Origin: an uncultured Alphaproteobacteria bacterium | GTDB lineage: Bacteria; Pseudomonadota; Alphaproteobacteria; RF32; CAG-239 | Assembly (NCBI GenBank): GCA_949282205.1 | Contig: CASDOS010000023.1 | Location: 2,023 to 66,022, forward strand | Direction: 5' to 3' | Length of the DNA: 64,000 nucleotides | In this document: piece by piece, positions 11,747-13,582 of the stretch | How the letters are laid out: the number at the start of each line of letters is the position of its first letter | How positions within the stretch are numbered: position 1 is the stretch's first letter | Position numbers and translations under genes: made by a program | The notes under the pieces: model-generated | What the model was told of the DNA's origin: nothing | What the model saw: the letters and a program-made list of their open reading frames with translations, nothing else | The model's database searches: none

Positions 11747-13582
11747 TTAGCGTCCGTCGCTATTTTTTGCAGCCATTGCCAAACCTAAAGCAGGAGTTTG
11801 TTGTTGCTCATCATCGGTAAACACGAGTTCCCCTTTCCAATTTTGAGGCAATTCAGCACAACTATCCTCCATTTGCTTGCGATTTTTGAAAACCAACTTT
11901 TTAACCTCGCTCAAGCTACAATTCTTTAATTTCACGTCAGAGCACATAGAAACATCCAGTTGTTGAGGTAAAATTACAGCCCCGGACAAATTAACTTTAG
12001 CCCCTTTTTTAAAGCAAAGATTAAGTTGTTTGACGAGCAGACACCAACTTAAATCCAGATCATCACATTGCGAAAAATCAAGATTATGAGGTAAATTTTT
12101 TGCCAACTGCAATTTCACCTTAGCCCCATTTTTAAAACAAAGATTAGGCTGAGAGCACAAATCACAAAAATCTAAATCAACCTCATCACATTGGGAAAAA
12201 TCAAGATTAGGAGGCAAATTTTTTACCCCTCTCAAAACCACCTTAGCGCCGTCTTTAAAGCGTAGATTAGGATATTCACTCAAATCACAGCCACCCAAAT
12301 CAACTTCATCACATTGGGAAAAATCAAGATTAGGAGGTAAATTTTTTGCCCCCCCAAAATGCACCTTAGCACCGTCTTTAAAGCGTAGATTAGGATATTC
12401 ACTCAAATCACAGCCACCCAAATCAACTTCATCGCATTGGGAAAAATCAAGATTAGGAGGCAAATTTTTCGCCCCTCTCAAAACAACCTTAGCGCCGTCT
12501 TTAAAACGAAGATTAGGTTGAGAGCTTAAATCACAACCACTTAAATCCAGCTCATCACATTGAGAAAAATCAAGATTAGGAGGTAAATTTTTCGCCCCAC
12601 CCAAATGCACCTTAGCGCCGTCTTTAAAGCGTAGATTAGGATATTCACTCAAATCACAGCCACCCAAATCAACTTCATCACATTGAGAAAAATCTAGATT
12701 TTTCGGTAAATCTTCAACCCTGCTCAAAACCACCTTAGCGCCGTCTTTAAAACGAAGATTAGGCTGTTCGCTCAAATCACATTCACTTAAATCCACCTCG
12801 GAACATTGAGAAAAATCCAAGTTTGCCGGTAAATTATCAGCGTTACCCAAACGCACCTTAGCACCGTTTTTAAAGCGAAGATGAGGTTGTCCGCTCAAAT
12901 CACACCATCCTAAATCCACCACATCACACATAGAAAAATCCATGTTTTCTGGTAAATTTTTCACATCAAACAGCTCAACCTTCGCCCCATCTTTAAAACG
13001 AATACCTTGCACACCATGCAAATCACACCCTTCGATTTTCTTTTCATCATAAAAAGAAACATCTGACGAGTTAAGAAATTCCATATTTTTTGGAAATTTG
13101 ACCTTATCATCAAACTGAATTTTCTCACGGCTTAAAAAAAGCATTTTATCATACGCGCTAAAATCTTCATCTGTAAAATGAGATTTCGCACTGACCACAT
13201 GTTGCCGAGCATCAGCTTCAGAAAACAAATACGGTCCATCATTAATTTTTTTAAGTTTTGCAAATTCTATCCCATAACCGGATTTTTCCGCTAATTCTTG
13301 CCCCACATCTAAAACAGGCTTTGGCTGTTCACGGTTATCAAAACAAGCAAGCACCACATCTTTGAATTGCGCTTGCTCTTCATCCGGCAATTTAGCAATA
13401 AGTTGGAGCATATTTTGAATACAACGCGGATGGTTTGTAGATTTAAGAATATCAAAACACACTTCGGGTGTCAGTTTTTCTTTGGGTTGTCGCACACCTT
13501 TAACAACAACGCCTTTGTCATACGCCGTCAAGATATTGGCAATTTTCAAAGGTGATTTAGGACTTTCAACATCAACAAACAT
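11747..13582 (-). CDS. MFVDI-family repeat protein (611 aa; N-domain, 9 repeats and C-cap)
   Basis: It has the MFVDVESPKSPL.. N-domain. Nine units of NLRFKDGAKVxLxGAKNLPPNLDFSQCDEVDLxGCDLSxxP follow. The cap is LVFKNRKQMEDSCAELPQNWKGELVF and the tail is ..LGLAMAAKNSDGR. Confidence 0.9.
   Translation of the reverse strand: MFVDVESPKSPLKIANILTAYDKGVVVKGVRQPKEKLTPEVCFDILKSTNHPRCIQNMLQLIAKLPDEEQAQFKDVVLACFDNREQPKPVLDVGQELAEKSGYGIEFAKLKKINDGPYLFSEADARQHVVSAKSHFTDEDFSAYDKMLFLSREKIQFDDKVKFPKNMEFLNSSDVSFYDEKKIEGCDLHGVQGIRFKDGAKVELFDVKNLPENMDFSMCDVVDLGWCDLSGQPHLRFKNGAKVRLGNADNLPANLDFSQCSEVDLSECDLSEQPNLRFKDGAKVVLSRVEDLPKNLDFSQCDEVDLGGCDLSEYPNLRFKDGAKVHLGGAKNLPPNLDFSQCDELDLSGCDLSSQPNLRFKDGAKVVLRGAKNLPPNLDFSQCDEVDLGGCDLSEYPNLRFKDGAKVHFGGAKNLPPNLDFSQCDEVDLGGCDLSEYPNLRFKDGAKVVLRGVKNLPPNLDFSQCDEVDLDFCDLCSQPNLCFKNGAKVKLQLAKNLPHNLDFSQCDDLDLSWCLLVKQLNLCFKKGAKVNLSGAVILPQQLDVSMCSDVKLKNCSLSEVKKLVFKNRKQMEDSCAELPQNWKGELVFTDDEQQQTPALGLAMAAKNSDGR

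Follow-up and report, generated by a model that had tools for sequence, protein, structure and literature searches.

The signals recognized by VirB/D4 type IV secretion systems are C-terminal, hydrophilic and positively charged (PMC10025392, PMC8525350). Two of their substrates that have experimental support come from the alphaproteobacterium Anaplasma: Ats-1, which ends in HGKGTR (PMC2824752), and APH0215, which ends in IGRSRT and is no longer translocated when its last 21 residues are lost (PMC6414681). A C-terminal element of another kind is the membrane-targeting tag of Escherichia coli MinD, KGFLKRLFGG (PMC5471200). We describe here a family of repeat proteins from a 64,000-nucleotide stretch of contig CASDOS010000023.1 (assembly GCA_949282205.1; an uncultured alphaproteobacterium of the lineage CAG-239), referred to below as the window, in which twelve member genes cover approximately 40% of the 64 kb and every product ends in arginine. 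The feature is closest in kind to the C-terminal targeting signals found on expanded families of repeat proteins, and the best-supported reading of the tails, which we put forward tentatively, is that they are Sec-independent targeting or export tags.

The starting point was the minus-strand region 11747–11920, which encodes the C-terminal 57 residues of a 611-residue member (gene 11747–13582) together with its stop codon. It contains the end of the last repeat, followed by a cap (LVFKNRKQMEDSCAELPQNWKGELVFTDDE) and then by the tail (QQQTPALGLAMAAKNSDGR). The cap, at 11819–11896 (LVFKNRKQMEDSCAELPQNWKGELVF), was delimited by a regular expression and by the AlphaFold model of a paralogue, and is predicted to be a strand, a short helix and a second strand closing the solenoid. 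The tail, at 11750–11818 (TDDEQQQTPALGLAMAAKNSDGR), consists of an acidic linker, a segment of what we call the ‘LGLAM..K’ class and the terminal arginine, the codon for which (CGC, 11750–11752) is followed by the stop codon TAA (11747–11749). The original prediction, made from the letters of the DNA, held that all 12 members end in arginine, the one fused to a leucine-rich repeat (LRR) core included, and translation confirms this for 12 of 12. It also held that such an outcome is unlikely by chance, and indeed only two of the 33 non-family open reading frames (ORFs) of at least 120 residues in the window end in arginine. When 20 related loci are added to the window, no more than 18 of 185 non-family ORFs do so, about half of these 18 being misclassified family members, which corresponds to a background frequency of at most 10%.

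Five of the six arginine codons are used at the last position of the twelve window members, and all six occur there when the related loci are included. The stop codon is TAA or TAG, the sequences downstream are unlike one another, and the penultimate residue changes from member to member (in coordinate order G, G, G, H, S, R, E, A, T, W, C, E). Because the terminal codons vary, the arginine must be conserved at the level of the protein. That it merely reflects a DNA element further downstream, or the context of the stop codon, is ruled out by the use of six codons from both codon families, by the occurrence of both TAA and TAG and by the differing downstream sequences. An analogy with the Gly-Gly ends of ubiquitin-like or Pup-like proteins, or with double-glycine leader cleavage, was likewise rejected: in the window Gly-Gly is often absent and the arginine is kept. 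It should be mentioned that one of the two non-family window ORFs ending in arginine (23119–24225, plus strand; ...YEDNRR) encodes a 368-residue protein whose long N-terminal half is Lys/Ala/Pro-rich and histone-H1-like and whose C-terminal half is hydrophobic; only sub-threshold Pfam hits were obtained for it.

A protein search identified 262 homologues, and 82 of the 120 that were listed end in arginine; most of the other endings amongst those listed are either the motif extended by a single residue (GGRS, GRP, GGRL) or GGK. In an alignment of 84 non-redundant tails, anchored at the C-terminus, the last position is better conserved than any of the 14 before it (R in 60 of 84, 2.46 bits). Next in conservation are G(-2), G(-3) and K(-4), together with hydrophobic residues at -6/-7 and -10/-11, with three residues between the hydrophobic positions, giving the consensus hydrophobic(-11)...hydrophobic(-7/-6)-x-K(-4)-G-G-R-COOH. 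For a set of representatives we took the 115 listed matches to a profile of the N-terminal domain (N-domain, see below) that are at least 240 residues long and mutually no more than 50% identical. The last residue is arginine in 76 of these 115 (66%) and lysine in four, a ratio of approximately 19:1, and one or other of the two lies within the last two positions in 96. When the representatives are divided into thirds by distance from the query, the share ending in arginine falls from 80% through 70% to 38%, always above the background of at most 10%. The bodies of the proteins are rich in lysine (K:R approximately 2:1) and position -4 of the tail also prefers lysine, so generic charge does not explain the terminal residue; the preference is for arginine itself, not for charge. 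Finally, in the LRR-type subfamily to which member 19006–20184 belongs, ten of 11 proteins end in arginine with unrelated tails (KNKHR, KKDSGR, GYGSR, AGFSR, RKKTR), and the one homologue that does not is a truncation of a longer, arginine-ending form.

These observations bear on the simplest explanation, namely that the arginine has no function and was inherited from the ancestor of recently duplicated genes. The members are tandem paralogues with signs of gene conversion (the N-termini of 53434–55638 and 55644–57755 are identical), as this explanation would have it. However, the tails have diverged beyond recognition between classes and subfamilies and the arginine stays; it is written with six codons, and it is kept at no more than 50% identity and in the LRR subfamily, against so low a background. 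The turnover of codons and the conservation across distant members effectively refute inheritance alone, to which we attach next to no probability. No signal described so far is known to us in which arginine is fixed at the last position in such a manner.

The C-termini had also been characterized in the original prediction as positively charged. This is true in the sense that the last 15 residues carry a net charge of +2.7 in the family compared with +0.7 in other ORFs (p = 2e-11), but the charge is modest, lying between +1 and +6. The absence of an N-terminal signal peptide, claimed on the same occasion, agrees with a crude hydropathy scan, which revealed no signal-peptide-like or transmembrane segment in the members; its lone near-hit, at 59758, was an artefact of a start extended to a TTG. 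Over the whole family, a signal-peptide-like N-terminus occurs in two of 263 proteins and a transmembrane-like segment within the last 45 residues in one of 263. In this respect, the family differs from the LPXTG, PEP-CTERM and GlyGly-CTERM tags and the C-terminal domain of type IX secretion substrates. Those are likewise C-terminal tags carried by a paralogous set of proteins in each genome, often with a basic end, but they have a transmembrane helix or an 80-residue folded domain in addition to a signal peptide. A sorting tag for a sortase, exosortase or rhombosortase was rejected on the same two counts.

Conservation that is anchored to a position, the specificity for arginine over lysine and the retention of the residue across diverged tails argue for recognition by a specific protein partner rather than for electrostatics or drift. 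The lack of a Sec signal, the fast evolution and expansion of the family and the combination of acidic bodies with a basic, flexible end make an export or targeting tag the best reading of this recognition. The proteins are made in the cytoplasm without a signal peptide. A protein partner would read their tail as a free and arginine-specific C-terminus, and they would be taken in this way to the cytoplasmic membrane and, as the most likely next step, into a Sec-independent export or translocation route by which they might leave the cytoplasm. The short helix preceding K-G-G-R (MinD-like in approximately one-third of the tails) would provide membrane affinity and the terminal K-G-G-R specificity. 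The orphan N-domain would probably be the second half of a bipartite signal or, alternatively, a functional head. Expansion into paralogues and a number of repeats that varies between strains (see below) are typical of interaction or effector families.

The best known precedent for a receptor of this kind, and for the machine that may be involved, is the type IV coupling protein, and the tails of the Anaplasma substrates make it the leading one. Family tails and VirB/D4 signals share the extreme C-terminal site, the hydrophilic and net positive character, the importance of arginine and the absence of a Sec signal; the ends of Ats-1 (HGKGTR) and APH0215 (IGRSRT) are close to the family endings GKGGR, GKGSR, GGRS and PRSR. 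The Bartonella Beps provide a further parallel, as an effector-like family that is tandemly duplicated and possibly uses a bipartite signal (PMC10025392). There are differences too from the VirB/D4 signals, those of Agrobacterium VirF and VirE2 included. The family fixes the very last residue, which has not been described for type IV signals, and its charge is lower; it has no BID or XVIPCD domain, and no type IV secretion genes were seen near its genes. It seems best to separate two parts of the earlier proposal of a C-terminal export or sorting signal. The general idea is strengthened, in that the last residue is the best conserved position, is specific for arginine, is encoded by six codons and persists in the LRR subfamily. 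The type IV part is not supported by any test made here, and the assignment remains unproven.

Several observations weigh against an export tag, of type IV or otherwise. No type IV, type I, type VI or other secretion gene was found in the window or in the neighbourhoods of at least six related metagenome-assembled genomes (MAGs), as surveyed by context look-ups and by Pfam scans of window and neighbouring ORFs amounting to approximately 0.5 Mb, a biased sample that is far from whole genomes. A screen of neighbouring ORFs for Walker-A motifs recovered GlyRS, PBP1A, UvrA, a ComM-like protein and HydF, and no VirB4, VirB11 or VirD4. The tails are not rich in arginine, with one to four in the last 20 residues, and those of the LGLAM class in 11747–13582 and 13663–16368 carry only +1. 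The Agrobacterium consensus R-X7-R-X-R-X-R occurs in none of the 263 family proteins. The tail was not seen on unrelated families, on which a general secretion signal should also occur, in a sample biased towards family loci. Finally, the content of cysteine (2–6%, compared with a background of 1.4%) is as compatible with a cytoplasmic location as with delivery into the cytosol of another cell.

Membrane targeting without export has to be considered alongside this. The two tail classes distinguished in the original prediction are both real, and all the endings that it quoted are present. One, the LGLAM..K class, makes up about one-fifth of the family, member 11747–13582 included; the other consists of tails rich in Trp and Lys, described there as amphipathic-looking but without the comparison with MinD that follows. 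A pattern of two hydrophobic residues, any residue, K or R, two further hydrophobic residues and G, which mirrors the MinD tag, is found within 20 residues of the end in 81 of 263 family proteins (approximately 31%) but in only three of 157 background ORFs, and 55 of the 81 have exactly four residues after it (...FVGKLFG-KGGR). It is possible, if rather doubtful, that such an amphipathic helix with its basic end holds the proteins on the cytoplasmic face of the inner membrane, or on the membrane of a target cell, in the manner of MinD and FtsA (PMC5471200). The helical hydrophobic moments of the Trp/Lys tails in the window are high (0.68–0.82), Gly follows the hydrophobic pair as in MinD and FtsA, AlphaFold predicts a terminal helix, and neither signal peptides nor nearby secretion genes were seen. 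On the other hand, the LGLAM..K tails are not amphipathic (0.2–0.3), and over the whole family amphipathicity is no different from background (p = 0.13). The LGLAM tails nevertheless keep K-G-G-R, an addition to the MinD/FtsA arrangement that is better conserved than the helix preceding it, and a purely electrostatic role should accept lysine, contrary to the ratio of approximately 19:1 at the last position. The carriers, moreover, are solenoid proteins and not ATPases.

What precedes the tail is best seen in the 513-residue member 59763–61304, for which an AlphaFold2 model with a mean predicted local distance difference test score (pLDDT) of 92.7 was obtained. Residues 10–109 form a helical N-terminal domain and residues from approximately 115 to 460 a beta-solenoid. 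The cap is modelled as strand QLIF, helix KKQMER and strand KIVY, at a pLDDT of about 77–90, and is followed by a low-confidence terminal helix (VFLQKLMNLK) and by disordered last residues. Given this low pLDDT, and in contrast to the confidently folded cap, the tail is likely to be flexible and exposed; linkers of 12 to 82 residues separate the two. The model supports the view that the cap is the structural closure of the last solenoid coil. In general terms, a beta-strand ([LIV][IVF]FKN) would lead into a short helix at xQM and, beyond a loop, into a second strand (W-x-G-x-[IVL]VF) with acidic residues after it. A cap consensus of this kind had been proposed at the outset, and the cap itself is real. 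A loosened form of the consensus is found in 10 of 12 members; the literal form was over-specified and matches only two of 12 in the window. Of the three members said to carry looser caps, 53434–55638 does have a visibly weaker one, and those of 43474–45141 and 57761–59677 are degenerate. Member 19006–20184 was said to have none, and the regular expression indeed finds none.

The solenoid has a period of 41 residues, corresponding to approximately two coils, with two conserved cysteines. It resembles the solenoids of LRR and pentapeptide-repeat proteins, bacterial effectors amongst them, in having one short strand per coil and conserved core positions of the Leu/Cys/Asn type, and classical LRRs are found in some relatives. 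LRR domains, in addition, typically have a dedicated motif that caps the C-terminal end. The family differs in that no model reached threshold when seven members were scanned against Pfam and four against NCBIfam; the LRR-type member 19006–20184 gave only sub-threshold LRR hits in Pfam, and precomputed hits to PF00805 exist for just two homologues. Structural comparison gave template modelling (TM) scores of no more than 0.3: in a Foldseek search of the full model against the PDB the best match was a weak, LRR-like one to TLR8 (E = 2e-3, TM-score 0.27), and the TM-score for Qnr was about 0.1. To our knowledge, no subtype with a 41-residue double-coil repeat and two conserved cysteines has been described.

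The N-domain starts at Met1 (MFVDI-x-N-x-KSPL) and contains approximately 20 invariant positions, including the acidic or polar residues D4, E69, E85 and Q86. Modelled alone, it reached a pLDDT of 86. A fold search against the PDB found no structural relative (best E 0.8, Fis1), and a profile search of PDB sequences gave none either; an identification as an F-box was dropped after the fold search. Neither the family, nor its N-domain, nor the K-G-G-R-COOH ending has a match in Pfam, NCBIfam or the PDB. N-domain and arginine-ending tail flank three different middles: the 41-residue solenoid, a classical LRR core (as in L005 13202–14557, which ends ...LNGLFGKSRR) or almost nothing, as in proteins of 190–210 residues such as P0215, which ends ...FFSRLYNKIKSR. 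Amongst the window members, no tracking of the N-domain subtype with the class of tail is visible by eye.

The association of the two ends suggests a third explanation, in which the N-domain receives the K-G-G-R-COOH of the same or another member, leading to autoinhibition or to head-to-tail assemblies, independently of repeat number. Evidence for this includes the co-occurrence of N-domain and terminal arginine over the three cores and in very short members, the invariant acidic and polar residues listed above and the flexible linkers. In the sampled DNA only N-domain proteins were seen to carry the K-G-G-R tail, K-G-G-R-like tails on supposed non-family ORFs all being traced to family relatives, and two solenoid relatives that lack the N-domain, P0075 (ending RRQNG) and P0110 (NQTTR), also lack the motif. 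However, the model of the monomer leaves the tail undocked and at low confidence, and a comparison of N-domain columns with loss of the arginine gave a best p of 0.0018 over approximately 60 columns, which is within what multiple testing would produce. Overall, we consider docking improbable.

Some variations on the standard arrangement should be noted. A 276-residue relative without the N-domain (L013 6595–7425) has an internal duplication with two copies of the cap and ends LAMAKAKARGGK. At least one gene model thus has cap and tail but no N-domain, though it is possibly a fragment. In P0199, P0209, P0221 and P0230 the N-domain is not at the start of the protein and follows an unrelated domain of approximately 80–270 residues; two of these four end ...GKGTDGR and ...QGSDGR.

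A further possibility, which we regard as unlikely though worth stating, is that K-G-G-R-COOH and the MFVDI... N-domain together constitute an undescribed targeting system, private to the clade, that reads the free C-terminal arginine. It might take the form of a new secretion or sorting route or of head-to-tail self-assembly, serving dozens of fast-evolving solenoid proteins per genome.

Three other explanations were considered. ClpX recognizes C-terminal motifs of the LAA type and basic ones of the MuA type, and polar or charged C-termini stabilize proteins against tail-specific proteases. The tail could in principle be a basic degron for an AAA+ protease or an anti-degron guarding a floppy end, and position-anchored conservation on an exposed, flexible segment fits both of these precedents. 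Neither would account for the restriction of the motif to one family, for its tracking with the N-domain or for the preference for arginine over lysine, and we give such a role in proteostasis little credence. Selection of terminal arginine over lysine is a feature of eukaryotic readers such as neuropilin and certain ubiquitin ligases. If the proteins were to act in a host after release, the ending could serve as a C-end-rule motif ([RK]xx[RK]-COOH, read by neuropilin) or as an arginine C-degron for eukaryotic ubiquitin ligases. The motif is present in 120 of 263 family proteins compared with eight of 157 background ORFs, and the bacteria come from gut metagenomes; only five of 12 window members have it, however, and an action of this sort appears very unlikely. 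A signal for type I secretion, read by an ABC transporter, would also be C-terminal and would suit large repeat proteins with acidic bodies (pI 4.7–5.8 for most members). Substrates of this kind are expected to be rich in LDAVTSIF and poor in KHPMWC over the last 60 residues, to have few cysteines and to contain GGxGxD repeats (PMC4315096). The family shows neither the enrichment nor the depletion (LDAVTSIF 45.8% compared with 51.3% in the background; KHPMWC 20.8% compared with 18.9%). RTX repeats of the form GGxGxD occur in none of the 263 proteins, the tails are basic, the proteins are rich in cysteine and no ABC transporter or membrane fusion protein genes lie nearby, so that this explanation has hardly any probability.

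Searching 1.84 billion representative sequences with the N-domain profile identified just 233 proteins, and the family is thus a small one. All members with a traced source belong to related, uncultured gut Alphaproteobacteria, and amongst these the family is confined to a few anaerobic lineages. Relatives are present in the MAGs SI.A54.metabat-bins.112, BRZ_QQ__bin90, BRZ_CV__bin18, BRZ_SF__bin16, GCA_949282825.1 and GCA_965315125.1 and in further metagenome assemblies from ENA and Logan; the LRR member of the window also occurs on ENA scaffolds of ERZ16268217 and ERZ16268063, whereas the product of 61389–63500 has no entry in the assembly index. No relative was found amongst the viral contigs of IMG/VR, from which we conclude that the family is not phage-borne, and a literature search on the clade found nothing. 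The neighbours of the family loci are housekeeping genes (PGI, RF-1, PBP1A, MutL, UvrA, GyrA, MdoG/H, TolB, LolA, PagP, HydF and PFOR), from which we infer an anaerobic Gram-negative cell with a normal envelope. The number of repeats differs between strains of the same species: the counterpart of the 901-residue member 13663–16368 is 860 residues long in one assembly and split into 739 and 146 residues in another (L028 4726–7363 and L029 1993–4575), implying rapid gain and loss of 41-residue repeats. Together with the share of the window that the family occupies, this variability makes it probable that the proteins are central to the interaction of these bacteria with their surroundings. Should the K-G-G-R end prove to be an address tag, it would offer a simple signature, searchable by sequence, for a class of effector-like proteins from gut Alphaproteobacteria that have never been cultured. 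The full set of cargo could then be listed from genomes alone. The tag would also point towards its receptor, be it a coupling protein, the membrane or the family's own N-domain, and, being short and portable, it could be used in heterologous assays of translocation or membrane localization.

The remaining window members are, apart from 19006–20184, on the minus strand. That at 4004–6520 (838 residues) comprises core, cap and a tail ending KDKGR (terminal codon CGA). This ORF lacks an N-domain, which is found instead in an upstream ORF of 135 residues at 6517–6924 (MFVDISALKSP..., ending GRNL), the stop codon of which overlaps the start of 4004–6520 in ATGA. The split at 4004–6924 may reflect a sequencing error, a frameshift in what is now a pseudogene, or a true split gene with translational coupling. 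The 901-residue member at 13663–16368 has a tail ending LGLAMSVKTNDGR (CGC), and the 392-residue LRR-type member at 19006–20184, on the plus strand, has a divergent N-domain and a classical LRR-like core and ends KNKHR (CGA). Next are 43474–45141 (555 residues, ending RYRAMPRSR, CGT) and 45158–46909 (583 residues counted from the MFVD start, tail LNLAMATAKIKDRR, AGA). In the 734-residue member at 53434–55638 the linker is long and rich in Lys and Glu, and the tail is amphipathic (SIWKRWWGKFER, CGT). It is followed by 55644–57755 (703 residues, AVAIAALNTKNGRAR, AGG) and 57761–59677 (638 residues, amphipathic tail RIWARWFAKGGYTR, AGG). The modelled member at 59763–61304 has the tail VFLQKLMNLKWR (CGA), and 61389–63500 (703 residues) has an 82-residue linker and an amphipathic tail (GLVKKFWDKLCR, CGT). 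The twelfth member, at 63574–64000, is cut by the end of the window and is represented by its C-terminal part, with the cap LIFKNREQMD... and the tail FARKLWTKKER (CGA).

Several members form head-to-tail arrays with gaps of just five or six bases. In both of those that end in AGG, the ATG of the next family gene lies within five bases of the stop codon (AGG TAG GTTCG ATG and AGG TAA CACTG ATG, at 55644–55649 and 57761–57766 on the minus strand), and the terminal AGG codons may double as the Shine–Dalgarno sequence of the downstream paralogue.

Other features of the window are mentioned briefly. The region 20313–22272 contains four small ORFs of 132–152 residues (three minus-strand, one plus-strand), without a Pfam match, all of which end in tyrosine (IEIAY, HKYEY, IEIGY, INYAY). 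Genes of similar size are called at the matching positions in other copies of the locus, and more distant MAGs (L021, L028–L030) show a comparable series of small genes. The sole RNA gene of the window, tRNA-Thr(CGT) at 29852–29927, is followed, within 29852–32465, by two overlapping ORFs of 349 and 459 residues, both Asn-, Tyr- and Thr-rich and without a Pfam match; the region may be an integrated element or may encode surface or tail-fibre-like proteins. At 35103–38814, on the minus strand, two adjacent paralogues resemble phosphatases of the Ppx/GppA type, and a CcrM-like adenine methyltransferase with a DPPY motif adjoins them; both resemblances were judged by eye only. Finally, 25533–28490 (minus strand) encodes a multi-pass membrane protein of 985 residues that gave no Pfam hit and carries, close to the N-terminus, a short TPLTQTD tandem repeat. 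In a related MAG (L024) the counterpart bears the annotation DUF8393, and the gene is conserved beside HydF and DUF179 across the clade.

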